Shown here: in pieces, positions 9,978 to 46,012 of the stretch
Position numbering within the stretch: the first letter of the stretch is position 1
How the letters are laid out: each line of letters begins with the position of its first letter
Assembly: GCA_003250395.1 (NCBI GenBank)
Contig: QKGM01000044.1
Location: 116,550-180,549 of the forward strand
DNA length: 64,000 nt
DNA from: Bacteroidota bacterium
GTDB taxonomy: Bacteria > Bacteroidota > Bacteroidia > Bacteroidales > TTA-H9
Direction of reading: 5' to 3'
Made by a program: the position numbers and the translations under genes
The notes under the pieces: generated by a model
Database searches by the model: none
Seen by the model: the letters and a program-made list of their open reading frames with translations, nothing else
What the model was told of the DNA's origin: nothing

Positions 9978-11363
9978 CTAAAATGTAAGTGAGAATATTG
10001 TTCCCTCTTCTGGTCTGGATTTTACAGATATAGAACCTTTGTGCAGTTGCATAATTTGACGGGAAAGACTAAGCCCGATCCCTGAACCTTCTTTTTTCGA
10101 TGTAAAAAAAGGCATGAATATTTTATCGATAATATCTGGCTTAATTCCTGATCCATTATCGATAATGTCTATTGTAATCCTCCCGTTTTTGTTGGCATAG
10201 GCCTCGATTCCAATTTTCCCTTCTTCTCTGCCTTTTAGTGCATCCAGTGCATTTAATATCAGGTTTATAAAAACCTGATCGATAAGGTCAGGATCAGCGG
10301 TAAGCATCAGGTCAGGGGGTGAAGCCCTGAATGTGAAAGATACGTTTTGTTCAGTTAACCTGGGTTTCATTAAACGCTGAAGTCTATCGAAAGCTTCTGT
10401 AACGGGGAAGTAACGAAAATTAGGTTTTGGTATCCGGGTGAGGTTTCGGTAGATTTCAACAAAATTGAGCAAACCATTGCTTCTGTTTTGGATTGTCAGC
10501 AAAGCATCGTGAACATTTTGCACATCTTCCTGATCCAACTCACGTGCTTTAGGAGGTGATATTTCAGCATCAATCAGCATGTCAGTAACGGTAGATGCCA
10601 ACGACGAAATCGGGGTGATTGAATTCATTATCTCATGAGTCAATACTCTGATTAGTTTCTGCCATGATTCAATCTCCTTCTCTTCCAGTTCACTGTGAAT
10701 ATTTTGAAGCGAGACCAATACGTATGATTCGTTCCTTAACCTGAATTCGGTGGCATAGATGCTTAACTGGAGTAACTCATTATCTATAAATACTTTTATA
10801 AGTGACCTGTCGCCAGCTTTCATTCTAAGCAGAGACTCAGGCAGCGATTTCTTGATAACACCCAATTCACTAATATTTCTCAGAGGGCTTGTACCAAGCA
10901 GTCGACGAACAGCATGATTCTGCATATCTACTTTTCCATCGCTTCTGAAAGCAATAATCCCTATACTTATGTGCTGAACAACAGTCTGGAGGTAATTAAA
11001 ATGCTCTTCTTTTTCTGCCCGGTTTTTCTTGAATTCTTTAATTACTTCCGTGAACGCTTCACTTAAGCGTTTGAAGCTTTTCCCCATTCCTTTGTCACTA
11101 AATGTAGAAGTGAAATCGGCATGGCGAATACTTTCTAAAAATTGAGTAATCCGGCGATTCGTCCTTTCCACATACCGGATAAGCTCCAATACGGCCATTA
11201 CAGCCATAATTCCAACGATGACAGCACTGAACCTGAACTCATGGTGCATTGACAACCAAATAGTGGCAAACATTAATGCTGCCAGGCCAAGAACACGGCC
11301 TATAACCCCAAACCTGAATCCGTTAAAGGCCATATTTTTCAATTCTACGGTATAGTGATGCAC
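9978..11363 (-). CDS. Sensor histidine kinase (NtrB-like partner of the adjacent sigma-54 regulator)
   Basis: 461 aa. Two N-terminal TM segments, H-box THEIMNSITPI, ATPase boxes NLILNALDA, DNGSGI, GSGIGLSL. The start may instead be the Met at 11333. Confidence 0.85.
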   Translation of the reverse strand: MHHYTVELKNMAFNGFRFGVIGRVLGLAALMFATIWLSMHHEFRFSAVIVGIMAVMAVLELIRYVERTNRRITQFLESIRHADFTSTFSDKGMGKSFKRLSEAFTEVIKEFKKNRAEKEEHFNYLQTVVQHISIGIIAFRSDGKVDMQNHAVRRLLGTSPLRNISELGVIKKSLPESLLRMKAGDRSLIKVFIDNELLQLSIYATEFRLRNESYVLVSLQNIHSELEEKEIESWQKLIRVLTHEIMNSITPISSLASTVTDMLIDAEISPPKARELDQEDVQNVHDALLTIQNRSNGLLNFVEIYRNLTRIPKPNFRYFPVTEAFDRLQRLMKPRLTEQNVSFTFRASPPDLMLTADPDLIDQVFINLILNALDALKGREEGKIGIEAYANKNGRITIDIIDNGSGIKPDIIDKIFMPFFTSKKEGSGIGLSLSRQIMQLHKGSISVKSRPEEGTIFSLTF

Positions 11364-12711
11364 GGGTTAATCCCAATTCCCGGGCAGCCTTACTGATATT
11401 CCCGCCATGTTTATCAATAACCTTACGAACAAGGAGCTTTTCAGTTTCTTCAAGATTATACCCGGCTGATTGAAGATCTGGTTCTTTGTCATCATCACTT
11501 TGATTAAAGAAAAAATCATGAGGTTGAAGAATAGTTCCTTCCCCGAGAATTACAGCCCGTTCAACCGCGTGCTCAAGCTCTCTTATATTTCCAGGCCATG
11601 GATGCTTCTCAAGTCTTTTCACAGTTGCCGGAGCAAGCCTTTTAAAGGGCATCTTATATTTTTTACAGAAAACTGTAAGAAAATGTTCAGCCAGAAGAGG
11701 AATATCTTCGATTCTTTCCCTGAGAGGTGGAATTTGAATTTCTACAGTATTGATCCGGTACAGCAGATCCTGTCTGAACTTGGAATCGTTTACCATCTGA
11801 TAAAGAGGCATATTAGTAGCACATATAAGCCTCACATCTATAGGTATCTCCCGGTTTGTTCCAAGCCTGACCACCTTACGGTTTTGCAGTACACTAAGAA
11901 GTTTTGACTGGAGAGGAAAACTGAGATTACCGATTTCATCGAGGAAGATTGTCCCCTTGCTTGCAGCTTCAAACCTTCCGGCACGATCTTCTTTTGCATC
12001 GGTAAAAGCTCCTTTTTTAAACCCGAACAATTCGCTTTCAAAGAGTGTTTCACTGATAGCCCCTAAATCTACGCTTACAAATACCTCTTTAGATCGAAGC
12101 GAAGCACGGTGAATAGCTCTGGCTATTAACTCCTTGCCAGTCCCATTCTCACCAAGGATCAGAACGTTGGCATCAGTGACAGCTACCTTTGAAACTGTTG
12201 CCAGCACTTTAAGCATTGCCGGCGATTGACCTATCAAATCCTCGTAAGGCTCATTCGCATTGGTCAGTAGAATTTTTTTTTTTGTACGGAGATCTTCCAG
12301 TTCCTTTTTTGATTCCCTGAGCTTCAGATTCGCCTGAATTTCGGCAAGCAGTTTCTTATTATCCCATGGTTTTAACAGAAAATTGGTAGCTCCCTCCTTG
12401 ATTCCCTGCACAGCCAGTTCTATATCGCCATATCCTGTAATAAAGATTACCACGGCAGCGGGATCAATTCCCAGGATTACGTTTAACCAATGAAACCCTT
12501 CTTTACCACTGGTCGCATCACGCGAAAAATTCATATCGAGAAGAATGACGTCATAATTCTCGTTCTGAAGCAGGGTAGGTATGTTACCGGGATCTGGTTC
12601 AGTATGAACAATCTTGATGTGTTGTTTGAGAAATAATTTGGCTGCAAGCAAAACATCCTGATCATCGTCAACAACCAATATTTTGGCTTCAATTTTTTCC
12701 ATAAGCAACAT
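11323..12711 (-). CDS. Sigma-54-dependent response regulator (NtrC family)
   Basis: 462 aa. Receiver domain (ILVVDDDQDV, LLDMNF), AAA+ domain (GENGTGKE, GAFTDA, FLDEIG), C-terminal Fis-type HTH. Confidence 0.9.
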   Translation of the reverse strand: MLLMEKIEAKILVVDDDQDVLLAAKLFLKQHIKIVHTEPDPGNIPTLLQNENYDVILLDMNFSRDATSGKEGFHWLNVILGIDPAAVVIFITGYGDIELAVQGIKEGATNFLLKPWDNKKLLAEIQANLKLRESKKELEDLRTKKKILLTNANEPYEDLIGQSPAMLKVLATVSKVAVTDANVLILGENGTGKELIARAIHRASLRSKEVFVSVDLGAISETLFESELFGFKKGAFTDAKEDRAGRFEAASKGTIFLDEIGNLSFPLQSKLLSVLQNRKVVRLGTNREIPIDVRLICATNMPLYQMVNDSKFRQDLLYRINTVEIQIPPLRERIEDIPLLAEHFLTVFCKKYKMPFKRLAPATVKRLEKHPWPGNIRELEHAVERAVILGEGTILQPHDFFFNQSDDDKEPDLQSAGYNLEETEKLLVRKVIDKHGGNISKAARELGLTRASLYRRIEKYGL

Positions 12712-13000
12712 TTTAGCAATGTTATTGGGATAAATTTCCTCTGTATTACAACCACAGACGTATAAGGGTTATCAAAAGTAAACAATTGTACGGAAATGAA
12801 CAAGATAAATTGAACTTTTTTTTAATCAGTTGTTTAAGAATTGAAAGTCTTCTTTAATTGAAGTTAGTTAGCAGAGGTAGAAGGCTATTATACCAACTAC
12901 CGAATGGTACAAATGGTTTTTGTTGAATACTAGCACGATAACATTGAATTGTCCGACTATCTGACATTTTCATTATCTTGCACCGGTCAAAACCCGATCA

Positions 13001-14929
13001 GTGATGAACCACGAAAATGATCAACATCGTCAAATAATCGATGCCTCACATGAGAGAAGCCGTCGGTTTGGGGTTATGCGTTCACAAAGATTTCCTTCTC
13101 AGGCATTGGCATCAGAAGAACTGGCAAAGCATTTAGCGGGCAGCATCCCGTTTATTGATATGGCTCTGCCTGTGGTACGACAACTTTACGAAGCTGTCAG
13201 GGGATCTGGCTACTTTATAATATTGACTGATGCTGAAGGGTGTATCCTTCATGTAATTGGTGACGATGAAGTGATTGAAGAGGCACAACGGCTCAATATG
13301 GTAACGGGGACTTTCATGACAGAAGAAAGCATCGGTACCAATGCTATGGGAACAGCATTAAGGACCGATAAGCCTATTCAGGTGAATGCAACAGAGCATT
13401 TCATCGACGCCTACCATCGCTGGACCTGTTCTGCTGCTCCCATTCATAATCCGGACGGTGAGATCATCGGGACTTTAAACCTGACCGGGCATGCCCAGGA
13501 TGTTCACCCTCATACGCTTGGACTGGTAATTGCGGCCAAAGAAGCGATTGAAAGTAAGTTTGAAAGCCAGATGATTCAGCATCAGCTTTCAGAAGCTAAC
13601 CAGTACGCTTTCACCCTGATGAACAACCTTTCATTTGGTGTTTTCGCGATAGACCTGAACGATGAAATACACTGGGTAAACGATACCGCCTGTCGTATAC
13701 TGAATATTAGACGACAACTGCTTATTAACAGGCAGATGTCTCTATTCTATAAGGAATGGCCCGGCGTTAAACGAAAAATTCTTTTAGGCGAAACATTTCT
13801 GGATGAAGAGGGCCGTATCATTGTTGAAGGTGTGGATGAGAAATTCATAGTAAATTCTTATCCGATTAAAACTCCCGAGAATGAAATACTCGGATTTATG
13901 ATCACCTTGCGGGAGTATCGCCGGATGCTCAGCTTCGTTAATAAATACGCCGGCAGCCATGCCCGGTATACATTTCAGGACATCATTGGAATCAGCGCCC
14001 CGATCCAGCAGGTTATCAGTTATGCCCGAAAGGTCGCTCCCGGCCCTTCGTCTGTATTGATTACAGGAGAAAGCGGAACTGGTAAGGAGGTTTTTGCCCA
14101 GGCCATCCATAATGCTTCATCCAGGCATGATGGTTCGTTTATTGCCATCAACTGCGGAGCCATCAGCACAACGCTGATTGAAAGCGAGCTCTTCGGGTAT
14201 GAAGACGGAGCTTTTACAGGTGCACGTAAAGGAGGGCGCCCCGGAAAATTTGAACTGGCCGATAAAGGGACTCTCTTCCTCGATGAAATCGGTGAAATGC
14301 CACTTGAAATGCAGGTTAAACTTCTTCGCACAATTCAGGAAGGATCGGTTACCCGGATCGGCGGAGAAAAGGAAATCAGGGTTGATGTCAGGATCATCGC
14401 CGCCACAAACAAAAACCTATCGGAAGAAGTTAGAAAAGGACGTTTCCGTTTAGATCTTTTCTACCGTTTAAATGTTATCCCGCTCAGGATTCCTGCATTA
14501 CGTGAAAGACGTGAAGACATCAGGGCTCTTGTGAAATTTTTTCTGAAACAGAAGGCTACCAGTCTTGGTAAAAACATCCCTTATCTTTCTCCTACATTAA
14601 TGGAGAAAGTGATGGATTATCAGTGGCCCGGAAATATCAGGGAACTGGAGAACTTTATTGAAAAAGCAGTCTTACTGGATGGGAATATACTCCATATCAC
14701 TGAAACAACCCTTCCCCAGGAACACGTGGATCAGGAAGAACGGGGATATATTCACCCGGTAACCACTAAAGATGATCAACCGCTTTTGAGTATAGAAGAG
14801 GCCGAACGTGAAGCGATTCTTCGCGCGATAAAAAAACTGGAAGGAAACATCAGTAAGGCTGCCCGGGTGCTTAAGATCAGCAGAAATACTCTTTATCTTA
14901 AAATGAAAAAATACGACATTCCCTTTTAA
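13001..14929 (+). CDS. Sigma-54-dependent transcriptional activator, AcoR-like (GAF/PAS sensor, no receiver domain)
   Basis: 642 aa. N-terminal GAF-like and PAS-like regions, GESGTGKE, GAFTGA, LFLDEIGE, C-terminal HTH. GTG at 13001, ATG at 13004. Confidence 0.9.
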   Translation: MMNHENDQHRQIIDASHERSRRFGVMRSQRFPSQALASEELAKHLAGSIPFIDMALPVVRQLYEAVRGSGYFIILTDAEGCILHVIGDDEVIEEAQRLNMVTGTFMTEESIGTNAMGTALRTDKPIQVNATEHFIDAYHRWTCSAAPIHNPDGEIIGTLNLTGHAQDVHPHTLGLVIAAKEAIESKFESQMIQHQLSEANQYAFTLMNNLSFGVFAIDLNDEIHWVNDTACRILNIRRQLLINRQMSLFYKEWPGVKRKILLGETFLDEEGRIIVEGVDEKFIVNSYPIKTPENEILGFMITLREYRRMLSFVNKYAGSHARYTFQDIIGISAPIQQVISYARKVAPGPSSVLITGESGTGKEVFAQAIHNASSRHDGSFIAINCGAISTTLIESELFGYEDGAFTGARKGGRPGKFELADKGTLFLDEIGEMPLEMQVKLLRTIQEGSVTRIGGEKEIRVDVRIIAATNKNLSEEVRKGRFRLDLFYRLNVIPLRIPALRERREDIRALVKFFLKQKATSLGKNIPYLSPTLMEKVMDYQWPGNIRELENFIEKAVLLDGNILHITETTLPQEHVDQEERGYIHPVTTKDDQPLLSIEEAEREAILRAIKKLEGNISKAARVLKISRNTLYLKMKKYDIPF

Positions 14930-14961
14930 ATGTCCTAAAATTATACATTGCTATTTATCAT

Positions 14962-14995
14962 GACACCATCCAACAGGAGATGGTGTCTTTTTTTT
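14962..14995 (+). terminator. Intrinsic terminator after the activator gene
   Basis: GACACCATC / GATGGTGTC stem followed by T8. Confidence 0.75.
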
Positions 14996-15064
14996 AAGCA
15001 TAAGTAAATATTTATCGTTTCTCCCCTTACATCATCTCATTGATTTTCTTTTAATTAACACTAT

Positions 15065-15080
15065 TGGCACGACATTGGCA
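15065..15080 (+). promoter_or_regulatory. Sigma-54 (-24/-12) promoter for the alcohol dehydrogenase
   Basis: TGGCACGACATTGGCA matches 11 of 12 specified positions of TGGCACG-N4-TTGCW with GG-N10-GC spacing. It lies 44 nt upstream of the ATG at 15124 and directly downstream of a sigma-54 activator gene. Confidence 0.6.
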
Positions 15081-15123
15081 TAGATTTAGGCTGAATAGAT
15101 AACAAATTAAAAATTCTTGCCTT

Positions 15124-16290
15124 ATGTCACGATTCACATTACCTCGCGATTTATACTTTGGTGCCGGCTCATTAGCCGAACTTAAAAACCTGAAAGGAAC
15201 AAAAGCCATAATCGTTACCGGCGGTAACAGCATGCGACGGAATGGATTTTTACAGAAAACCATTGATTATCTTCATGAAGCCAATATGGAAACAAGGCTT
15301 ATTGAAGGTGTTGAACCCGACCCCTCTGTTGAAACAGTGATGAAAGGAGCTGCAATTATGCGTGAATTTCAGCCTGACTGGATCGTAAGCATTGGAGGAG
15401 GATCACCTATCGACGCTGCTAAAGCAATGTGGATTTTTTATGAACATCCTGAAGCCGATTTCAACGAAGTGGCCAAACCATTCAACATTCCTGCCCTCCG
15501 TAATAAAGCCCGGTTTGTTGCAATCCCCAGCACCAGTGGTACAGCAACCGAAGTAACGGCTTTCTCTGTTATCACCGACTACAGCAAAGGAATTAAATAC
15601 CCGTTGGCCGACTTTGAGATTACCCCTGATGTTGCGATTGTTGATCCCGATCTGGCAATGACAATGCCGACTGAACTAACAGCTCATACCGGTATGGACG
15701 CCCTCACTCACGCTACTGAAGCTTATGTCGCTTCGCTTCACAGCGATTTTACCGACCCTCTTGCCTTGAAAGCTATTCAGATGATTGTTGAGAACCTTCT
15801 AAAATCATATACAGGCGACCCCGAAGCAAGGGTTAAAATGCACTATGCACAGTGTCTGGCAGGGATGGCCTTTAGCAACGCTTTACTTGGAATCGTACAC
15901 AGTATGGCTCATAAAACAGGTGCTGTATTCCATGTGCCACACGGTTGCGCCAACGCAATCTATCTGCCCTATGTCATCGACTACAATAAAAAATGTTGTG
16001 CTTCCAGACTGGCTGATATCCCGAGATTTCTTGGTCTGCAAGGCCAAACCGATGATGAACTGATCGATGCTTATACAACGTTGATTCAACAGATGAACCG
16101 TCAGATGTCGATACCACTTTCTCTGAAGGAATATGGTATCTCTGAAGAAGTATTTCTTGCAAACCTCGACCGCATATCCCGCAACGCGGTTGATGACGCC
16201 TGTACAGGTTGCAACCCAAGGCCAACCGGCGAGTCTGATTTCAGACAACTTTTCAGGTCAGTGTACTATGGTACTAAGGTTACCTATTAA
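15124..16290 (+). CDS. Iron-containing (group III) alcohol dehydrogenase
   Basis: 388 aa. GGGSPIDAAK motif and His-rich metal site (HSMAHKTGAVFHVPHG), typical of butanol/1,3-propanediol-type Fe-ADHs. Confidence 0.9.
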   Translation: MSRFTLPRDLYFGAGSLAELKNLKGTKAIIVTGGNSMRRNGFLQKTIDYLHEANMETRLIEGVEPDPSVETVMKGAAIMREFQPDWIVSIGGGSPIDAAKAMWIFYEHPEADFNEVAKPFNIPALRNKARFVAIPSTSGTATEVTAFSVITDYSKGIKYPLADFEITPDVAIVDPDLAMTMPTELTAHTGMDALTHATEAYVASLHSDFTDPLALKAIQMIVENLLKSYTGDPEARVKMHYAQCLAGMAFSNALLGIVHSMAHKTGAVFHVPHGCANAIYLPYVIDYNKKCCASRLADIPRFLGLQGQTDDELIDAYTTLIQQMNRQMSIPLSLKEYGISEEVFLANLDRISRNAVDDACTGCNPRPTGESDFRQLFRSVYYGTKVTY

Positions 16291-16330
16291 TCCGACCTTC
16301 AACCCTTACGGGTTTTAATATATCACCACC

Positions 16331-16366
16331 TGGTCCGGTAGTGATGAACTGCCGGACCATTTTTTC
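16331..16366 (+). terminator. Intrinsic terminator after the alcohol dehydrogenase
   Basis: TGGTCCGG / CCGGACCA stem followed by T6. Confidence 0.7.
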
Positions 16367-16382
16367 CTAAATCTGCCCCGAT

Positions 16383-17024
16383 ATGAAAATGATTAAAACA
16401 GAAGATACGACTTTGGCAGAACCCACTCTCAAACGGCTCAATTCATATTTGACTGTCGGCAAGATTATGCTCCGACAGGGTTGCCGGCAAATTACCTGCG
16501 AGCAACTGGCCAATGCAACCAACACGGAAACTGAAATGGTAATTTCCGACCTGATATCCAATCCGAGGATGGCCTCTGCTGATAAATTCATTCCTATGGA
16601 CGAACTTGTCGTTGAGATTGAATCTATCCTGCTCAGAGGAATTCGCGAGACCGTAATCGTCGCGGGAACCAGAGAGCGTGTCGGGAAACTTATCAATAGT
16701 TGGGAGTTCGGGGGATACAATTTCAATATAGATGCTGTGTTCAGCCTGGATGGAATTCCTGCCCATGCCATGCAATACGAAATGTTGGAAAACGATCAGG
16801 AACTAACCGCGTGGGGAGAAACATCATCGCTGACTACTGCGGTGCTTGATGCCAGTTATGACCAGGCTCAGTTAATTGCCGACCGTCTTATTTCTCTTGG
16901 CATAAAACATATCTGGAATTTTTCACCATTGGTACTGGTAACAGTTCCCGGGGTGATTGTCGAAAACGTGATCCCCGGGTACCCCAAATGGCACTGTTAT
17001 CAGCACAATACCATGCTGAGCTGA
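16383..17024 (+). CDS. Divergent Rex-family (redox-sensing repressor-like) regulator
   Basis: 213 aa. Alignable by eye to Rex: N-terminal winged helix (TLKRLNSYL..), C-terminal IADRLISLGIKHIWNFSPLVLVTVPGVIVENV. The GxGxxG dinucleotide loop reads AGTRERVG. Confidence 0.6.
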   Translation: MKMIKTEDTTLAEPTLKRLNSYLTVGKIMLRQGCRQITCEQLANATNTETEMVISDLISNPRMASADKFIPMDELVVEIESILLRGIRETVIVAGTRERVGKLINSWEFGGYNFNIDAVFSLDGIPAHAMQYEMLENDQELTAWGETSSLTTAVLDASYDQAQLIADRLISLGIKHIWNFSPLVLVTVPGVIVENVIPGYPKWHCYQHNTMLS

Positions 17025-17123
17025 TCTATATCAGAACTATACCCCGAATGAAACAAACCGGATTCTGTATTTACCGGGCAAACCTGTCAGTCATTTACCC
17101 GCATTAAAAAACCAATCATAACA

Positions 17124-17384
17124 ATGGAAAAAAAGCATCATATTACAATTTGTCTCGGAAGTAGTTGTTTTACCCGCGGAAATGATATAAACCTCGAAGT
17201 TATCAAAAAGTACCTCGAAAAGCACGGGATGAAAGATCAGGTTGACTTCAGAGGTCATTTATGTGCCAACTCGTGCAACAAAGGACCTGTACTCAACATT
17301 GACGGTATTTCTTATTACGAGGTTCAACCCGGGCAGGTAGAACAAATTCTCAACGTTGCACTCAACCACGAAGTAGAAGTGTAA
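17124..17384 (+). CDS. Thioredoxin-like [2Fe-2S] ferredoxin (NuoE/HfsA-like)
   Basis: 86 aa with four Cys in a CLGSSC ... CANSC arrangement. Ends 11 nt before the hydrogenase-like gene. Confidence 0.7.
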   Translation: MEKKHHITICLGSSCFTRGNDINLEVIKKYLEKHGMKDQVDFRGHLCANSCNKGPVLNIDGISYYEVQPGQVEQILNVALNHEVEV

Positions 17385-17395
17385 TTTTTCCGGCC

Positions 17396-19090
17396 ATGAC
17401 AACTCAGCTGCCAGTCTATACCGTAAGCAACAACTGCCAGGATTGTTACAAATGTATCAGACAATGTCCTGTTAAAGCGATCAGGATTGAAAACTCAAGA
17501 GCAGGGATCATTGAAGATCTTTGCATTAGTTGCGGTCATTGCACCGTCGTCTGTCCGGCAGGAGCCAAACGTTATCGCAGCGACCTTCAGTTGGTAACAA
17601 CGTGGATCGATGCAGGCGAAGAAGTGGTGCTTTCGGTTGCCCCTTCGTTATTTGCATTTATCAACGGCACCCGGCAGGAAATTCTTAACCATTTGTGGTC
17701 GCTTGGGTTTTCACATGTATCGGAAACTGCATGGGGAGCAGAGCAAACCAGTATAGCCACTGAGAAATGGCTTACTGATTACCAGGGTAATGTTGCTATT
17801 TCTACAGCATGCCCGTCGGTGGTATCACTTGTCGAGAAGTATTACCCTCAATTCATTCCGGGTCTTGCCCCGGTAGCCTCACCCATGCTGATGCACGGGG
17901 CTATGCTGAAAAACACATTCGGACCGGATGTAAAAGTTGTATTTGCAGGCCCTTGTATCGCGAAAAAACTGGAAGCCTCATGCGCTCATGGAGAAATAGA
18001 TGCTACACTTACAATAAATGAGTTGCTTCAACTTCCATCTATTCGTCCTCCCGATCTGAATCAGTCTCAAGGCTGGTATCCGGGTATGGCTGATGGGAAA
18101 AGCAGAAATTATCCATTGGAAGGGGGAATGCTCCGGTGTATCGATTTTAAAAAACTGGCATTCCACCCTGTCGCTTTCTCAGGATTGCAAACCTGTATGA
18201 AAATTCTCGACGACTTAACTTCGGCTCCGTTTCCTGAAAATGTATTCCTTGAATTACTTGCCTGCGAGGGAGGTTGTTATATGGGGCCAGGTACACCTGA
18301 TACTGGTTCAGCCATCAGACGTAAAAGAGGTATTGTCCGACAAAATGGGGAGGCAGCCCTTTCCGTTACCGGATTTGACATACCGGAAACATTACCCGAC
18401 CGCGCGGGACTTCCCACTGGAAATGTAACACATTGCGTATATGACGAAAGTGATATTGTTTCTGCCCTGGAATCTGTTGGAAAGCATACCCCGGCTGATG
18501 AGCTGAATTGTGGAGGCTGCGGCTATGATTGTTGTCGTGAACTGGCGATCGCTTTGCTCGAAGGAAAAGCAGAACGAACCATGTGCGTTTCATATATGCG
18601 CAGGGTTGCACAAGATAAGGCCAGCGTTTTACTCGAGAAAATGCCCTATGGTGTTGTGATGGTTGACGACAAGCTCCGGATAGTTGACGCTAACCGGAAT
18701 TTTGCGATAATGCTGGGAACAGAAACAGAGGAAGCATTTGATGCAAGACCTGGCCTGGAAAGCGCCGATTTGCGCAAAATTGCAGGTTTCTACAAAATCT
18801 TCTCCTCGTCAATCAATACTGGTGAAGAAAGAGTAGAACATGATATCCGCCAGGGGGATCAATACTTTCACGTCTCGGTTGTTACTATTTTAAAATACAA
18901 ACTGGTTTGTGGCATTATGCAGAATATGAAAGATGAACGAACCCGCCGTGAAATGGCCACCGACCGGGTGCAGGAGGTGATTACCCAGAACATGAAGGTG
19001 GTTCAGCAAATTGCTTTTCTTCTTGGTGAGAATGCTGCCTATACCGAAACCATGCTTAACTCAGTAATCGAATCACACGATGCCGGTTAA
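17396..19090 (+). CDS. Sensory-type [FeFe]-hydrogenase-like protein with C-terminal Cys4 motif and PAS domain (HydS/HfsB-like)
   Basis: 564 aa. Two CxxCxxCxxxCP ferredoxin motifs. H-cluster motifs in variant form (STACPS, GPCIAKKLE, ELLACEGGCYMGPG). CGGCGYDCC..C motif, then a PAS-like region. Confidence 0.85.
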   Translation: MTTQLPVYTVSNNCQDCYKCIRQCPVKAIRIENSRAGIIEDLCISCGHCTVVCPAGAKRYRSDLQLVTTWIDAGEEVVLSVAPSLFAFINGTRQEILNHLWSLGFSHVSETAWGAEQTSIATEKWLTDYQGNVAISTACPSVVSLVEKYYPQFIPGLAPVASPMLMHGAMLKNTFGPDVKVVFAGPCIAKKLEASCAHGEIDATLTINELLQLPSIRPPDLNQSQGWYPGMADGKSRNYPLEGGMLRCIDFKKLAFHPVAFSGLQTCMKILDDLTSAPFPENVFLELLACEGGCYMGPGTPDTGSAIRRKRGIVRQNGEAALSVTGFDIPETLPDRAGLPTGNVTHCVYDESDIVSALESVGKHTPADELNCGGCGYDCCRELAIALLEGKAERTMCVSYMRRVAQDKASVLLEKMPYGVVMVDDKLRIVDANRNFAIMLGTETEEAFDARPGLESADLRKIAGFYKIFSSSINTGEERVEHDIRQGDQYFHVSVVTILKYKLVCGIMQNMKDERTRREMATDRVQEVITQNMKVVQQIAFLLGENAAYTETMLNSVIESHDAG

Positions 19091-20270
19091 CCTTAACAAC
19101 GCCTTTCTCGAAACGGGTTGGTCACAACTAAGTAAGGCAGGAAACCAGGTATGTGGCGACACAATCCTTACACGTCGCATCCAATCTGAGAACAGGTATG
19201 TGGCTGTTTTAAGCGATGGGCTGGGGAGTGGAATCCGCGCTTCAGTATTATCGACCATGACCGCGGGTATGGCGCTGAACTTTACCCTGAGCCATGAACC
19301 GGTAAAGAGAACCGCCGAAACAATCATGAGAACATTACCGGTCGATTCAAAGCGAAATATCAGTTATTCTACCTTTACCATTCTTGATGTTGATTGCCAG
19401 GGCGATATGAATATTGTCGAGTATGACAACCCGCCTCTCTTCCTGATTCGCGACCTTGAAGTTATATTCCCTAAACGTGAGAATATTCAGGCCCAAGGAC
19501 CTGCAGGCTTTAAAACCATGCATCTAAGTCAGTTATCGTTACAACCAGGTGACCGGGTTGTAGTGGTTTCGGATGGTGTCGTTCAATCTGGAATAGGTGG
19601 CCCGGTGACACCATTTGGCTGGGAAATTGGTGGATTAACTAATTATGTACAGGCACTTCTGGTAACAACTCCCGACATCTCGGCACGTGATCTGGCTGCC
19701 CGCATTTCCAGCCACAGTCTTTCGAACGACCACATGACCTCCGCTGACGATATCAGTTCACTTGTATTTTATTATCGCGAACCCAGAAAGCTCCTGATTT
19801 GCTCAGGGCCACCCTATGATAATTCCAGGGATGCATACCTTGCCTCAAGAGTCGATTCCTTCGCCGGTAAGAAAATCATCTGTGGCGGCACTACAGCCCA
19901 GATTCTCTCCCGGGAACTCAACAGGATCATTGACGTTGACCTTTCCACTCCCATGTTTGGAGTCCCCCCTGAATCGAGCATGGAAGGAATTGATATGATA
20001 ACTGAAGGCATTTTGACGCTTGGAAAGCTTGCCGAAGCCCTGTCGACAGGCAACTTCGATTCGCTTGCCGAAAAAAGCCCCATAGCCAGGATTATCAAAT
20101 TAGTGATGAATTCTGACATTATTGAGCTCCTCACCGGTACCCGTATTAATCAGGCCCATCAGGACCCTGCCCTTCCCATGGAACTCGAGATCAGAAGAAA
20201 CGTCGTGAAAAGGATTGCCCGTATCCTGGAAGATAAATACATGAAAGAAGTAAAGGTCAGCTACATATAA
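19080..20270 (+). CDS. PP2C/SpoIIE-family serine phosphatase with an uncharacterised C-terminal domain
   Basis: 396 aa. VAVLSDGLGSGIRAS and VVVVSDGVVQSG metal-binding motifs. The start overlaps the upstream stop by 11 nt. Confidence 0.8.
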   Translation: MPVNLNNAFLETGWSQLSKAGNQVCGDTILTRRIQSENRYVAVLSDGLGSGIRASVLSTMTAGMALNFTLSHEPVKRTAETIMRTLPVDSKRNISYSTFTILDVDCQGDMNIVEYDNPPLFLIRDLEVIFPKRENIQAQGPAGFKTMHLSQLSLQPGDRVVVVSDGVVQSGIGGPVTPFGWEIGGLTNYVQALLVTTPDISARDLAARISSHSLSNDHMTSADDISSLVFYYREPRKLLICSGPPYDNSRDAYLASRVDSFAGKKIICGGTTAQILSRELNRIIDVDLSTPMFGVPPESSMEGIDMITEGILTLGKLAEALSTGNFDSLAEKSPIARIIKLVMNSDIIELLTGTRINQAHQDPALPMELEIRRNVVKRIARILEDKYMKEVKVSYI

Positions 20271-20603
20271 CCAACAGAATTTAATTGGCGGTTACCGGCA
20301 ATAACAACAAAAAACTGCTGCACAAACTGTATGGCATTACAACGTATTGTCAACTATTATCGTTAACTCTTCCTGATCAGTGTACTGTACCCATCAATGG
20401 GTCAACTGTCCTGCTATTCAGTTTTAACCGGAATATATGACCGGAAATGTCAAAAAAAAGAGGATACAGGTATCGGTTCACAACAACAACCGAGATCAAA
20501 AAAACGGGGCAATTCTGGTTCTGTAACCCCTAAAAAACCACATTATTCTACCACAAAACACAAATTCACAAAACACTGATAAACAGCTACCAGACATAGT
20601 GTC

Positions 20604-20667
20604 GGTTCGTAGTGGCTTCGAAGCAGCTTCGAAGCAGTTTCGTATTCAAACGAACCCGCTACGAATT
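20604..20667. repeat. Intergenic element: 3 x 11-nt direct repeat (GCTTCGAAGCA) enclosed by a short stem
   Basis: GCTTCGAAGCA GCTTCGAAGCA GTTTCGTATTC, flanked by TTCGTAG ... CTACGAA. An inverted, related copy lies at 58005..58065. Confidence 0.7.
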
Positions 20668-20876
20668 CAAATTGGACAAACCACAAATGAAATATAAATC
20701 TGATTTAACAATAACATAGAATAGTTTCACAAAATTTTCGTTGGTAAAACATTTGCAAACCACATCATGAACACAGCACCCGGGGATTTGGTAATATTGC
20801 AGCAAGGATTATTAATATGAGATGGAACGATTCACCAGAAACATTTAATTTTGATTAGAATTTTTAATAGGATTAT

Positions 20877-41903: not shown

Positions 41904-44900
41904 CTATCTCACAATAACCTTCTGAACAACATTTCCTCTTTCGGTAATTACACGAACAACATATAAACCCGAAGGAATATTACTGAAATTCAAAGTATTA
42001 TTCAACAATGAAGTAACATCTGCACGTTGGATAGTTTTTCCAAGGGCATCAACCAATTCAACAGCAATACACTGAGTTCCTTCAGCACTTAGCCTTACAT
42101 TTATTACACCATTCGAAGGATTAGGATATACAGTGAAGTTAACTGTAACAGAATGGTCGATAACGCCGGTGTAATCAGCAGCGCAAATGTAATCGTACTT
42201 GACTGTGGTTTTCGTGGAATCTGCATTACTGGAGGTTAGCGATACATCGAAAAGGCCTGCATTTGGGTATACAGTACGGGGATTCTGCTCATTACTCGTT
42301 GCTGGGCTGCCACCTTCAAATGTCCATTCCCAGTTAGTAAAGCCAGGACTTGATAAGTCGGTAAACTGTACTTCGGTCTCGATAGCAGGGGTAGTCGTAC
42401 TGGCTGTAAAAGCAGCCCACATAGGTGAGCGTTCGATTCCAAAGAAAGTCAGATATTGCTGCATCAGATTCTGCTTGGTTGAAGGGAGTGTAGCATCTGT
42501 CAATCCTCCAAATTCCAAAGATGAGCCAATGGTTTTATAGGTTGAGGCATCATTGGCGATTGCAACGTCAAATGGCAAAGCCTGATTACTTAAAATAGTG
42601 AAAGCTTGATTCTTAGGCTCCAGTTTATCAATATAGTTTTCATCGCCACTAAAGGTAAAGTTCATTCCTTCAGCAAAAGTACCTGTCTTTCCGATCACGT
42701 TTGTAATATCGCCTCCATTATCGCCTTTACCATTAATATTAAACATGGGATGAAGATTGGTGGGATTACTGATCTGGTCATAATGCCATGTATCGCCACC
42801 TTCCATATAGAGACGACCTCCTCCATTGAGGAAGTTTACCATCTTTTGTGCTTCGGCCGTTGTAAGCACGTGCGCATTGGGGGATGTTCCCAGGCATATG
42901 AAAATCGACTGGTATAGTTCTGGTGTTGATGTCATAGTGGTGGTATAGTCAGCTGTAATTGAAAGAGATTGAACAGCGGTCTGTATTGCAGGACCTGAAT
43001 TTGTGTTTCCATCAAGATCAATTACCAGTACGGGAATACGTCCAACAACCAGATCAAAAGATTGAGAAACCTGCAGGTTGTATTCGCCATTAAGAAGCAG
43101 TTCGAAGTTTACGGAATGTCCACCGGGTGTAAACTCAGCCACAGTGACATTAAAAAGTTGCTCGCCATATGAATTTGGTTCCATATCACCATAAGAGGTA
43201 CCAGAACTATTTACCGTGATAAAAGGATCTCCCGTGGCCAATGTACCGATTACGGAATAAGCAGCAGCACTTCCGCCATTTTTTAATCTGACTTTGATAT
43301 CCGCAGTTTCACCAGGATCAAGACGACCATTGTTATTTCCAAGGGGATCGAGAACTTCGGTTATGACCAGATTGAGTGCTGGAGCATGCATCTCCATAGT
43401 AAATTGGCTGGCCCATTCATCACCATTATCCTGACAAAAGGTTTTGAAGGTTACCATATGCCCGTCTGGGACGTTGTCGGCAACCTTAACAGTAAATGCA
43501 TCAGGCAAACCAACCACCTGCCCGGCAGGAACAGCACCATAATTCTCTGTAGAATCAATCAGCGTAATATAAGGATCATCTGTCCTAAGCTTTACAACAG
43601 CATCTGTTGTAGGCTCAACACCAATATTCTTCATTCCAATATTCAACAATAAAGTTTCAGAATAATCTGCCTGCTGATTGTTGTTCCCGGAAACATCATT
43701 GATCTGATTGTTATTGTAAATAACATATGGTCCATTTGCAGGAATTACAGGAATTTCTGCCAAATAAGGAATACGGTTGTATTGTGTAAGTGCTATGGTA
43801 AGAGTATCGTTGACATTAGTCAAAGCGTTAAAGGTGATTTCTACCTGTCCGTTTGTAACAATCCCGCTACCCAAGATCTCTCCGTTGACAGATGCTACTG
43901 CTCTGGCTCCATTAGCATTTGAATTAATTACAAAAGATGTACTTCCAAGAAAGATGGTCGGATTATGATTGGCGCTGATCTCTGTTGGATTATCAGTACG
44001 AACAACAACAGAAGGGTCACCAAAAATCAACCAGGTATCAGTCATTTCATTTCCTCCGGAACCGTATTCATCATTCATCAGCATACACCCTTCCATCGAA
44101 AGAGCCCCAAAAGTACGACGAATGTTGGCGGGATATGATTCAACCAAAATGTCAACCATTTCATCCTGTCCAGCCATTGGAGGATCCCAACTCTGATTAA
44201 TAGTTGAACCCAAAAAAGCAACAGCACCGGTTGGTACACCACTCTGGCTAGCTCTCAGCCAGGCTTCTGCAAAACATGTCGTGTTCATGAATTCTCCATT
44301 AACACAAGCAACAGACCAGATAAAAGGAAGTTTCCCCTGATTTTGAAGAGAATTTACCGAAGAATTGCTAAATCCGGTAGTTCCCCACGATGTAGTACTG
44401 CCATGACCAGTGTAGGTAATAATTCCTGTCCCGGCATTTACTTCAGTGCTAACACTCGAAGCATTCGGGTTTCCGGGAGCATCATTTCCTCCCTGACTTC
44501 CGTCAAAAAGCTCAGGGTTCCAAGTATAGTTGTAACCCATCAGGTCAACCTGAATATTACGCTGATGCTGATAATCGTATTCGTTATCATCGCCCGGCCC
44601 CTGATCTGAACCAATTCCAAGACAGGTAGTATACCAATCATCCGAAGTGAATTGCGGTGTCTTTTCATAATCAATAGTTCTACGAACCTGCGTCTCAACG
44701 TGAGCCAAATTTTCTGCAGAAAAGCGACCAACAAATACTTCAGGATAATGGTCGTTACCAAGAATATATCCATATGCAACATCAGATGGACCACCAAGAT
44801 TTCCACCTGTCATTGTCGGTATCTGGGCATTATCACCAACCAGTAAAACAAATGTAAGACCATTGGTGTTATAGTAATTCTCTATATAGTCAGCTATTGC

Positions 44901-45728
44901 GGTAGATGTACTCCCGATGGAACCAACATTTACCATTTCTGTAGGTATGCCTATCGTGTTTTTCCATTCGACGAATTCTTCCATTGCAGGCATAAAATCA
45001 CCATAACTAATTACAAGCATATTCCCTTCTTCATTCACCGGGGTATAATCATTTAACGCATCATAGTTAATAAAATGCCGGCGATAAATCTGGTCGAATT
45101 CCGGGCTTATAACCGGATGTACATTATTGCTTGAAAGGACATTAGCTCCATTGTTATCCGCTTTTTCAACAGTTATGATAAGCTCATTGTATACCCTCAA
45201 TACTTTAGTCATAGGATTGTATTGATATGGGTATACTACAACCGTCTGACCACGCAAATCACGTATAATATGTGGTTCACGCAGTGAAACCAACTCCCCA
45301 GGGAAGAACCGGTTGTTCTGGTAGGCAGATCCCCAATTGTAAGGAACTGTTGCAGGATCTACATCGCGATATAAATTTCCCTTCGAAGGGGCAACATTAA
45401 TATTTTGGAAATCAGTGAAGGAGGATGAAACAACATTTACAGTCATCCTGTCGGTAGCTCCAATAGTGATAGATGTTGCCAGTTTGGGTAAATCGGGTGC
45501 CCCGGCCTCTAAAATTTGTGTAGCGTCATTATTCCGGATGACGACAGCAGGCCCCTTTGGTGTTTGAACAGGTAATTGCTCAAAATCAATCGTCCTAACA
45601 ACGAATGTTGTAGTATTTTGGTCGGTGCTAAGCAGATTAATCTCTGCTGTTGAACCAGTTGTCCTGACCTGAGCCAAGGCAGCTAATACCATAAAGCTGA
45701 TAATGAATGTTGAGAAGAGTTTTTTCAT
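41904..45728 (-). CDS. Gingipain-like C25 cysteine peptidase, T9SS cargo
   Basis: 1274 aa. Signal peptide, His/Cys dyad contexts YTGHGS and SVACVNGEF, PKD-like domain, C-terminal sorting domain VYPNPSNGVINV...GLYVVRVITERGNVVQKVIVR. Confidence 0.85.
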   Translation of the reverse strand: MKKLFSTFIISFMVLAALAQVRTTGSTAEINLLSTDQNTTTFVVRTIDFEQLPVQTPKGPAVVIRNNDATQILEAGAPDLPKLATSITIGATDRMTVNVVSSSFTDFQNINVAPSKGNLYRDVDPATVPYNWGSAYQNNRFFPGELVSLREPHIIRDLRGQTVVVYPYQYNPMTKVLRVYNELIITVEKADNNGANVLSSNNVHPVISPEFDQIYRRHFINYDALNDYTPVNEEGNMLVISYGDFMPAMEEFVEWKNTIGIPTEMVNVGSIGSTSTAIADYIENYYNTNGLTFVLLVGDNAQIPTMTGGNLGGPSDVAYGYILGNDHYPEVFVGRFSAENLAHVETQVRRTIDYEKTPQFTSDDWYTTCLGIGSDQGPGDDNEYDYQHQRNIQVDLMGYNYTWNPELFDGSQGGNDAPGNPNASSVSTEVNAGTGIITYTGHGSTTSWGTTGFSNSSVNSLQNQGKLPFIWSVACVNGEFMNTTCFAEAWLRASQSGVPTGAVAFLGSTINQSWDPPMAGQDEMVDILVESYPANIRRTFGALSMEGCMLMNDEYGSGGNEMTDTWLIFGDPSVVVRTDNPTEISANHNPTIFLGSTSFVINSNANGARAVASVNGEILGSGIVTNGQVEITFNALTNVNDTLTIALTQYNRIPYLAEIPVIPANGPYVIYNNNQINDVSGNNNQQADYSETLLLNIGMKNIGVEPTTDAVVKLRTDDPYITLIDSTENYGAVPAGQVVGLPDAFTVKVADNVPDGHMVTFKTFCQDNGDEWASQFTMEMHAPALNLVITEVLDPLGNNNGRLDPGETADIKVRLKNGGSAAAYSVIGTLATGDPFITVNSSGTSYGDMEPNSYGEQLFNVTVAEFTPGGHSVNFELLLNGEYNLQVSQSFDLVVGRIPVLVIDLDGNTNSGPAIQTAVQSLSITADYTTTMTSTPELYQSIFICLGTSPNAHVLTTAEAQKMVNFLNGGGRLYMEGGDTWHYDQISNPTNLHPMFNINGKGDNGGDITNVIGKTGTFAEGMNFTFSGDENYIDKLEPKNQAFTILSNQALPFDVAIANDASTYKTIGSSLEFGGLTDATLPSTKQNLMQQYLTFFGIERSPMWAAFTASTTTPAIETEVQFTDLSSPGFTNWEWTFEGGSPATSNEQNPRTVYPNAGLFDVSLTSSNADSTKTTVKYDYICAADYTGVIDHSVTVNFTVYPNPSNGVINVRLSAEGTQCIAVELVDALGKTIQRADVTSLLNNTLNFSNIPSGLYVVRVITERGNVVQKVIVR

Positions 45729-45779
45729 AAAAATTTATGATAGAAATAGGGTAAATTGGTTGGTTAGTTCCAAGAAGTT

Positions 45780-45787
45780 CAAAATTA
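45780..45787 (-). promoter_or_regulatory. -7 promoter box (TAATTTTG)
   Basis: TAnnTTTG on the minus strand, 52 nt upstream of the ATG at 45728. Confidence 0.35.
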
Positions 45788-45956
45788 ATCCTTTCTGATG
45801 AATCTACCACATAATTAAACACAATTATTTTTTTTCGTTGCCTGAAAAATACAATACAATTGATGGTCAACCTTAGAAATGAAAGGAAAGACGTAGAAAT
45901 CTACTTTTAAAACATAAATTATATTCTTTATCAGGTACCAATAGTTTATTGAATAT

Positions 45957-45990
45957 ACGAAAGAAGCCACCCTGAAAGGTGGCTTCTTAC
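45957..45990 (-). terminator. Intrinsic terminator after the second C25 gene
   Basis: GAAGCCACC / GGTGGCTTC stem followed by TTTCGTAT on the minus strand. Confidence 0.7.
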
Positions 45991-46012
45991 ACTTATAAAA
46001 ATTTAAAAACTG

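Follow-up and report, generated by a model that had tools for sequence, protein, structure and literature searches.

Anaerobes of gut, rumen and sediment abound in putative sensory [FeFe]-hydrogenases. The pathway by which they pass on their signal is an acknowledged unknown (PMC11376134). Here we describe a gene block at positions 13,001–20,270 of a 64,000 nucleotide (nt) stretch of contig QKGM01000044.1 from a Bacteroidota bacterium of the order Bacteroidales (assembly GCA_003250395.1; the whole stretch is called the window below), in which genes for a sigma-54 enhancer-binding protein (EBP) and an iron-containing alcohol dehydrogenase (Fe-ADH) lie together with a putative sensory hydrogenase, HydS, and a PP2C phosphatase. 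Among the closest described systems, the hfsABCD cluster of Thermoanaerobacterium encodes a PAS hydrogenase (HfsB), a Ser phosphatase (HfsC) and a ferredoxin hydrogenase (HfsD) (PMC11837493), and deletion of hfsA/B raises the adhE transcripts, an effect that needs intact hfsC/D (PMC5707799). In Ruminococcus albus 7 a cluster consisting of the ferredoxin hydrogenase HydA2, AdhE, HydS and a phosphatase shows a 111-fold regulation by H2 removal (PMC6776011). For the activator, experiments in Clostridium beijerinckii have shown that AdhR and SigL (sigma-54), together with three upstream activating sequences (UAS) and a -24/-12 promoter, drive adhA1/adhA2 (PMC7017808), the UAS class being TGT-N10-12-ACA (PMC6615313).

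When comparing the window with hfsABCD of T. saccharolyticum and T. thermosaccharolyticum, the order small Fe-S-related protein, PAS [FeFe]-hydrogenase and serine phosphatase is alike (PMC5707799, PMC11837493), and so is the genetic link to adhE expression and Rex. The HfsD-type catalytic hydrogenase is, however, absent here, in a position where relatives have a second NuoE-like gene (NuoE2) and a group B hydrogenase, and the window differs further in belonging to a Bacteroidota, in the attached sigma-54 EBP and Fe-ADH and in an extra C-terminal alpha/beta domain of the PP2C. With R. albus 7 the locus shares the clustering of a group C sensor and a Ser/Thr phosphatase with an alcohol dehydrogenase (ADH), for which a role as an H2-dependent switch between H2 and ethanol has been proposed (PMC6776011). 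The cluster of R. albus shares its transcript with a group A1 hydrogenase, while the window has no hydrogenase of that kind, and the cluster is reported to have an adjacent Ser/Thr kinase in a passage of PMC5707799 citing Zheng et al., whereas the window has none; here, in contrast, the ADH has its own putative sigma-54 promoter and a dedicated EBP. TmHydS of Thermotoga maritima, the biochemical prototype of group C, is alike in its two [4Fe-4S] clusters, H-domain, C-terminal [4Fe-4S] cluster and PAS domain (PMC10055695, PMC11376134) and in the replacement of CpI C299 by Ala (A131) and of M353 by Gly, but has Ser at the M497 position where the putative HydS of the window has Leu. The AdhR-SigL system is likened to the window by architecture, with a GAF-PAS-AAA+-helix-turn-helix activator beside an Fe-ADH, three UAS and a -24/-12 promoter, but the phylum here is Bacteroidota and the predicted regulon in Bacteroidales extends to HydS/group B operons, AdhE and Rex or Rex-like genes.

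Each component is of a described kind, namely a group C HydS, an hfs-type cassette, an AdhR-type unit and the Rex family. For Firmicutes, control of ADH expression by a sensory hydrogenase has already been put forward in print. Since HydS-PP2C-ADH associations have been published for R. albus and Thermoanaerobacterium, the arrangement is less unprecedented than was held in a first-pass annotation of the window, which did not recognise it as described. That statement is right only in part: the literature searched gave no report of HydS cassettes in Bacteroidota being recurrently coupled to a single family of sigma-54 activators with recognisable enhancer and promoter sites before the sensor/group B hydrogenase operon, nor of a Rex derivative without the NAD(H) loop, nor of a reduced sensor-only variant such as the one in the window. 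We propose, with a probability of roughly 0.6, that the block belongs to one regulon in which the EBP is the visible regulator, and in this proposal the output of HydS is left blank.

The sigma-54 activator and its predicted targets

The nine units listed in the first-pass annotation were all reproduced with their coordinates by the list of open reading frames (ORFs) together with Pfam and NCBIfam scans. The genes of the block, with lengths in amino acids (aa), are:

13001–14929, + strand, EBP gene, 642 aa (ORF list, Pfam, NCBIfam)
15124–16290, + strand, Fe-ADH gene, 388 aa (PF00465 and PF25137)
16383–17024, + strand, Rex-like gene, 213 aa
17124–17384, + strand, gene for a NuoE-like, thioredoxin-like [2Fe-2S] protein, 86 aa (PF01257, 36.4 bits)
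17396–19090, + strand, putative HydS gene, 564 aa (two Fer4, Fe_hyd_lg_C, PF04060, PAS_8)
19080–20270, + strand, SpoIIE/PP2C gene, 396 aa

Pfam analysis of the activator revealed GAF (43.9 bits), PAS (30.9), Sigma54_activat (240), AAA_lid_14 and HTH_8 domains and no receiver domain, and the translation contains GAFTGA as well as GESGTGKE, a Walker A motif. Judged by these domains the protein is an AdhR/AcoR-type sigma-54 EBP; its NCBIfam matches (PrdR, DhaR and others) all fall under the cut-off, a precomputed MimR_N match is on record for an orthologue, and the orthologues adjoining HydS cassettes are 43–68% identical over the full length. The listed start, GTG at 13001, directly precedes an in-frame ATG at 13004, and because the orthologues have 641 aa the latter is probably the true start. 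The ADH, whose best NCBIfam matches are the ADH half of AdhE and FucO, both under the cut-off, is by its Pfam domains an iron-containing (group III) alcohol dehydrogenase. Orthologues with 67–82% identity occupy the same position in the related loci L001, L002, L003, L016, L024 and L075 (L numbers refer to the survey described below). Around these two genes the following signals were identified:

12950–12966, no strand, TGT-N11-ACA site TGTCCGACTATCTGACA, 35 nt before the EBP start, of the TGTCC...GACA form seen in the sites behind the EBP gene
14931–14947, no strand, UAS1 TGTCCTAAAATTATACA, perfect TGT-N11-ACA, kept in L082, L084 and L001
14949–14965, no strand, UAS2 TGCTATTTATCATGACA, one mismatch, 18 nt past UAS1
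14984–15000, no strand, UAS3 TGTCTTTTTTTTAAGCA, one mismatch, 35 nt past UAS2
14962–14987, + strand, intrinsic terminator behind the EBP gene, T8 after a 9-bp stem, overlapping UAS2 and UAS3
15065–15080, + strand, sigma-54 -24/-12 element TGGCACgacatTGGCA, TGGCAC-gacat-TGGCA, with one mismatch, at -12; 44 nt before the ADH start
16331–16359, + strand, terminator or attenuator after the ADH gene, 12-bp stem followed by T6, with the Rex-like start 24 nt further on

Alignment with L082, L084 and L001 showed that the promoter and the enhancer sites of the window are footprinted by conservation. The spacing of 18 nt between UAS1 and UAS2 recurs in L002, L003, L005, L010 and L016, and a third site is found 32–35 nt past the second in L003, L005, L010 and L016. 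Both before the ADH gene and before the first gene behind the EBP the recurrent elements are TGT-N11-ACA palindromes and a sigma-54 promoter; two or three palindromes, typically TGTCCT...AGGACA, start straight after the EBP stop codon with a spacing of 18 and then ~33 nt, and the promoter takes the form TGGCAC-N5-TTGnn, 35–100 nt before the start codon. The density of TGT-N11-ACA is 6.2 per kb in the target promoter regions against a background of 0.26 per kb (24-fold), and TGGCA[CT] at -120 to -20 is present in 19 of 24 predicted targets compared with 43 of 1175 control genes (Fisher p = 7e-22). The same signals stand before the HydS operon in, for example, L005, L010, L020-L022, L049, L055, L056, L066 and L069, and in at least ten loci they precede NuoE-HydS, while in L046 they precede a canonical Rex gene that is followed by the cassette.

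The EBP domains, the -24/-12 promoter, the enhancer sites and the motif enrichment bear out the earlier description of activator and ADH as a sigma-54 unit, and the EBP is the predicted direct regulator of the ADH in the window. In Bacteroidales relatives its predicted targets are ADH, AdhE, the HydS/hydrogenase operon and Rex or Rex-like genes. The arrow that these motifs allow to be drawn firmly runs from the activator to the ADH and the sensor/hydrogenase genes; the reverse arrow, from HydS/PP2C to the activator, is only inferred. The remaining TGT-N11-ACA site, at 12950–12966, sits in a 289-nt divergent intergenic region common to the EBP gene and an NtrC-type regulator, and may be an autoregulatory enhancer site of the EBP.

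No further sigma-54 promoter was found before the Rex-like or the NuoE-like gene in the window, and a scan for sigma-70-type promoters, which is ill-suited to Bacteroidota promoters, gave 17 matches where shuffled sequences gave 16.9. The hairpin behind the ADH gene, which may act as an attenuator, is kept in L001, L002, L016, L024, L038, L082 and L084. In L075 the hairpin is absent and ADH and NuoE are just 35 nt apart, so that a single sigma-54 transcription unit would there comprise both ADH and the sensor operon.

Recurrence of the activator beside HydS cassettes

More than 4,400 homologues of HydS were retrieved, most of them from Bacteroidales. For the survey one genome per species was used and 80 loci, the best-scoring subset of at least 580, were mapped by tblastn and all-against-all clustering. 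A PP2C gene lies beside HydS in 80 of the 80 loci (tblastn), and a NuoE-like gene is located directly upstream of HydS in ~60, while a few more have such a gene only in the second position, downstream of PP2C. Most Bacteroidales have, further along the cassette, another NuoE-like gene and a hydrogenase of ~475 aa, which in relatives passes the TIGR04105 group B1 cut-off (491 vs 450 bits), and the resulting five-gene cluster corresponds to hfsABCD of Thermoanaerobacterium. Most of the relatives examined carry a group B hydrogenase directly behind the HydS-PP2C cassette. It was recently found that the H2 of the gut comes mainly from group B hydrogenases of Bacteroidia (PMC12578642). NuoE2 and the group B hydrogenase are missing in the window, L001, L081/L082 (= GCA_001768515.1) and L084, and a tblastn search of the 606-nt gap after the PP2C gene of the window gave no pseudogene of either.

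The co-occurrence of the genes in relatives, proposed as a check in the first-pass annotation, was found: the same 8-gene arrangement is present in GCA_001768515.1 and in one Logan contig, and the block is syntenic in relatives at 55–95% identity, so that the neighbourhood is not one confined to a single genome. A full-length EBP orthologue stands immediately upstream in 20 of the 80 loci, and the only recurrent neighbours of the cassette apart from its own genes are EBP, ADH and Rex or Rex-like genes. The gene orders observed are:

EBP, ADH, (Rex-like), cassette: window, L001, L002, L003, L016, L024, L075
EBP, cassette, NuoE2, AdhE, group B hydrogenase: L004, L005, L008, L010
EBP, (Rex), cassette, NuoE2, group B hydrogenase: L020, L021, L022, L046, L049, L055, L056, L066, L069
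ADH, NfnA-like, Rex, cassette, without an adjacent EBP: L006, L035, L050, L061

On the HydS tree the EBP-positive loci fall in several clades, indicating that the link between EBP and cassette has survived repeated rearrangement. One EBP family beside HydS cassettes in several Bacteroidales clades and in at least four gene orders argues for a functional link rather than chance neighbours. The link is also present in the cultured Carboxylicivirga sp. M1479, C. taeanensis and Marinilabiliaceae JC017.

The same data bear on the alternative that the two modules are independent, the EBP sensing an aldehyde, alcohol or ketone for the ADH only and HydS-PP2C regulating a hydrogenase encoded elsewhere, with the adjacency reflecting clustering of fermentation genes and shared inheritance. 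The terminator between the units, the lack of a sigma-54 promoter before the Rex-like or NuoE-like gene in the window, the many HydS cassettes without an EBP and the restriction of EBP-positive loci to a few related clades are all in line with this. We nevertheless regard it as unlikely, given that EBP sites and a sigma-54 promoter lie directly before NuoE-HydS in at least ten loci, that AdhE is found inside the HydS/hydrogenase operon in L004, L005, L008 and L010, that no terminator separates ADH from NuoE in L075 and that the link is kept in four gene orders.

Some of the surveyed loci show additional features. An NfnA-like gene is located between the sigma-54-driven ADH and Rex in L003, L006, L035, L050 and L061, and an NfnB-like gene (Fer4_20 and Pyr_redox_2) was detected in L003 and L006 only; the Nfn-like genes extend the island to the balancing of NADH, NADPH and ferredoxin. 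In Labilibaculum/Marinifilum (L023, L026, L029, L031, L033 and L057) tandem sensory cassettes occur in the order HydS (~570 aa), PP2C, NuoE-like, another HydS-like protein of ~617 aa and a second PP2C. This additional HydS-like protein is 33% identical and scores under the group A and B cut-offs, and these loci hold no catalytic hydrogenase.

Putative sensory cassette, Rex-derived protein and proposed regulon

Within the cassette the genes are closely spaced, with 11 nt from NuoE-like to HydS and -11 nt from HydS to PP2C according to the ORF list. The NuoE-like protein has the cysteine pattern Cx4C...Cx3C, resembles the C-terminus of NuoE/HydC and is, from its position, the putative HfsA-type partner of HydS. 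HydS itself gives 138 bits with Fe_hyd_lg_C (Pfam), and its H-cluster cysteines, C139 (L1 TACP), C187 (L2 GPC) and C290 and C294 (L3 ACEGGC), are invariant among 26 homologues, as are C372, C375, C380 and C397 of the C-terminal Cx2Cx4Cx16C motif (PF04060, 32.3 bits), which is followed up by a PAS_8 match of 24.3 bits against a cut-off of 21.8. Every HydS-type protein of the loci has this Cys4 motif, and the HydA/HydB proteins there all lack it. Where CpI has C299, M353 and M497, three second-sphere positions that separate sensory from prototypical enzymes (PMC10055695), HydS has Ala, Gly and Leu; in sensory enzymes Ala is found in ~43% and Gly in ~51%, the third position being variable (PMC10055695). 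The extra C-terminal Cys4 site and the PAS domain define the M2f/group C architecture (PMC13104023; PMC10055695).

When run against the NCBIfam models HydS reached 96.5 bits for group A (TIGR02512, cut-off 406) and 196.6 bits for group B1 (TIGR04105, cut-off 450), and its identity is 27% with validated enzymes of groups A and B from related loci and 42%, over its full length, with HydS-type proteins. Taken together, the scores under both cut-offs, the signature residues and the Cys4 and PAS domains set the H-domain apart from the catalytic group A enzymes, with which a clustering had been named beforehand as the result that would speak against a sensor. By architecture and signature residues HydS is therefore placed as a putative group C (M2f-type) [FeFe]-hydrogenase, and the last three genes come out, as first described, as an hfs/HydS-type sensory cassette. 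That HydS instead is a slow catalytic hydrogenase working with the [2Fe-2S] protein, and regulated post-translationally by PP2C, would agree with the retention of every H-cluster ligand, with the measurable activity of TmHydS (PMC10055695) and with the lack of another hydrogenase in the window. The second sphere, the Cys4 site and the PAS domain are all of the sensory type, however, and relatives nearly always pair HydS with a separate catalytic enzyme of group B or A, and we consider a catalytic role very improbable.

The HydS and PP2C genes overlap by exactly 11 nt, in L081 as well as in the window, and the phosphatase is on this ground predicted to be translationally coupled to HydS. Residues 1–235 of the PP2C are of SpoIIE/RsbX type, with a pLDDT score (predicted local distance difference test) of 85 for the PP2C model and Foldseek matches to 3pu9 (E = 1e-15), SpoIIE 5mqh (3.5e-14) and RsbX 3w40 (5e-12); the aspartates D27, D46, D165, D217, D223 and D224 are invariant and are the presumed metal ligands. 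Residues 236–396 form a conserved alpha/beta domain for which no sequence match was found in Pfam or the PDB, and the AlphaFold model of it (pLDDT 87) gave only generic Rossmann-like Foldseek matches (E at or above 3e-3, template modelling score below 0.5). An identity as STAS domain or kinase was considered for this region and rejected by the structure search. A STAS substrate or an anti-sigma-type kinase was found neither in the window nor recurring near the cassette in the 80 loci.

This last result bears on the possibility that HydS and the [2Fe-2S] protein sense H2 and switch PP2C, which in turn acts, directly or by way of a partner, on the GAF-PAS region of the EBP, so that ADH expression follows H2 pressure. 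EBP and HydS-PP2C stay adjacent through rearrangements, loss of hfsA/B raises adhE transcripts when hfsC/D are intact (PMC5707799), the R. albus cluster is H2-regulated (PMC6776011), and in some Clostridiales HydS-like sensor domains (Fer4, Fe_hyd_lg_C, FeS) are fused, as sensor region, to sigma-54 EBP cores (PMC6615313, domain list for Fig. 2a), all of which favour such a route, the last as a Rosetta-stone argument. Set against it, neither a Ser/Thr kinase nor a STAS protein or phospho-acceptor was found in the window or the 80 loci, the AcoR, AdhR and MimR class is usually thought to bind small ligands, and most HydS-PP2C cassettes come without an EBP. In sister lineages it is the EBP that drives the sensor operon, which fits a control of the sensor by the EBP at least equally well and would call for a feedback loop. 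This route is possible but on the doubtful side. A wider and still more tentative version holds that the sigma-54 EBP is the output of group C sensors in Bacteroidales at large, HydS-PP2C setting the AdhR-type activator directly or via the Rex-derived protein, which would have given up NADH sensing in exchange for this input, and the activator driving transcription of ADH/AdhE, of the group B hydrogenase and of the sensor itself. If true, this would be an H2-responsive feedback circuit choosing between H2 and alcohol as electron sink, and the Clostridial EBPs with fused Fer4-Fe_hyd_lg_C-FeS would be a one-protein version of it.

The Rex-like protein, designated divergent in the first-pass annotation, is divergent in sequence but not in orientation, its gene being co-directional with the others on the + strand. 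It aligns end to end with the NCBIfam Rex models (E = 1e-19) and retains the winged-helix N-terminus, but fails all Rex cut-offs (best scores 69.9 bits vs 126 and 68.6 vs 130), whereas Rex of L046, with 209 bits, and Rex of L050, with 154 bits, both pass them. Alignments show AGTRERVG ('VAGTRERVG') where the GxGxxG NAD(H)-binding loop belongs, while Rex proteins in the same slot of L046, L048, L050, L035 and L061 keep VGAG(N/K)LG or VGVGHLG. Scores under the cut-offs and the missing GxGxxG make NADH sensing doubtful. The protein is alike to Rex in overall fold family and in its position beside fermentation/hydrogenase genes, and unlike it in the loss of the glycine-rich dinucleotide loop, in a different but conserved C-terminus and in the missing Rex box: a search of the window for TTGTGAA-N4-TTCACAA with up to three mismatches gave two distant matches, where six were expected, and none in the region. 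The family has only 10 clusters in a collection of 5.8 billion proteins, and within it both VIVAGTRERVGKLINSWEF, the replaced loop, and VENVIPGYPKW at the C-terminus show strong conservation, which argues that the protein is under selection. On this evidence it appears to be a Rex-derived protein that has lost the NAD(H) loop and represents a small lineage-specific family. The slot is occupied in only ~10 of 81 loci.

A related gene was observed in L083 (GCA_049969475.1, 3696–6455), where an orthologous EBP, with 50% identity to that of the window over the part beginning with the PAS domain, stands before a pair of TGT-N11-ACA sites, a TGGCAC-N5-TTGC promoter that is perfect, and a Rex-like gene whose product is 34% identical to that of the window; the gene stands behind TGTCCTTTTTTATTACA, TGTCCTAATATTTTACA and the perfect TGGCACGGGGCTTGC, and there is no HydS, PP2C or ADH within 10 kb. 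This arrangement suggests that the Rex derivative is an EBP/sigma-54 target in its own right. One may also ask if the Rex-derived protein is itself the output, controlled by HydS/PP2C through dephosphorylation or contact and repressing fermentation genes. It lies directly upstream of NuoE-HydS-PP2C in the lineage of the window, the conserved VIVAGTRERVGKLINSWEF loop and VENVIPGYPKW point to selection on the protein, and a bona fide Rex takes the same slot in L035, L046, L050 and L061. With the Rex-like gene of L083 alone behind EBP and sigma-54 promoter, no HydS/PP2C nearby, no Rex-box-like operator in the window and a slot so seldom filled, we find this quite unlikely.

The one-regulon reading can then be set out as two linked modules for fermentative electron disposal. 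In the first, the EBP would bind the three TGT-N11-ACA sites directly behind its own stop codon and open the -24/-12 promoter 44 nt before the Fe-ADH gene, the ADH serving as an NAD(P)H sink. Transcripts of the second module would probably arise by polymerase reading through the ADH attenuator or at a promoter that escaped recognition; HydS might report H2 or the ferredoxin redox state via its PAS domain to PP2C, which in turn might dephosphorylate a protein encoded elsewhere, and the net effect would be that electrons are shifted between the evolution of H2 and the formation of alcohol. The catalytic group B hydrogenase, normally found behind the cassette, may have been lost or moved in this lineage. 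Compared with the proposal of an H2/redox device tuning the ADH, made in the first-pass annotation, the linkage of sensor cassette and activator/ADH stands, while the visible arrow runs from the EBP.

Several points weigh against this reading. The -12 element is degenerate, reading TGGCA instead of TTGCA, and of the three enhancer sites two have a mismatch. A strong terminator parts the ADH from the Rex-like and HydS genes, and no promoter was found for these. Neither a catalytic hydrogenase nor hydEFG is present in the 64 kb. With no substrate, kinase or STAS partner of PP2C in the window or conserved in the 80 loci, the output step is left blank, and with ~55 of the 80 HydS cassettes lacking an EBP nearby the EBP is not a universal output. 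The group C assignment of HydS is made by architecture and signature residues, and the regulon model as a whole is a prediction from the DNA.

The absence of a catalytic hydrogenase, hydEFG maturase, serine kinase and STAS partner from the window, as first annotated, agrees with both tblastn and Pfam scans: tblastn gave no second hydrogenase or pseudogene remnant in the 64-kb window, and Pfam no HydE/F/G-like radical-SAM/GTPase maturase, STAS or RsbW-type kinase in the other window ORFs of at least 110 aa. In this respect the window holds a reduced variant in which the sensor lacks its hydrogenase, and it could show what the sensor does alone. The EBP family with its recognisable sites offers a concrete, genetically testable regulator of the decision between H2 and alcohol in Bacteroidales, and standing beside sensor/hydrogenase operons it is a testable candidate for the output route of the sensors.

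Other features of the window

The remainder of the window contains housekeeping genes and genes related to the type IX secretion system (T9SS; Por_Secre_tail, C25 peptidases), the latter fitting a Bacteroidota. Two adjacent paralogous gingipain-like C25 peptidases of 1274 and 1302 aa with T9SS C-terminal sorting domains are encoded at 41904–49921 on the - strand; they have no relation to the gene block but confirm that the DNA is from a Bacteroidota. A scan of the whole window with Rfam gave two tRNAs only.

Divergent from the EBP gene, at 9978–12711 on the - strand, lie two genes with an overlap of 41 nt, one for a histidine kinase of 461 aa and one for an NtrC-type receiver-sigma-54 activator of 462 aa. 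The pair is syntenic in L001, L081/L082 and L084, and the NtrC-type regulator constitutes a second sigma-54 activator beside the EBP. NtrC-type response regulators located near other HydS clusters were considered as the same system and rejected, being just 38–40% identical to that of the window.

When analysing the 606-nt non-coding gap after the PP2C gene (20271–20876), a block at 20525–20665 appeared that is conserved with L082 far above its surroundings. The block terminates in tandem palindromes, GCTTCGAAGC in two copies (20615–20635), and as RNA it forms a stable fold (-32.2 kcal/mol, z = -3.1) with no match in Rfam. It may function as a terminator of the operon, as a small RNA or as a site where a protein binds.

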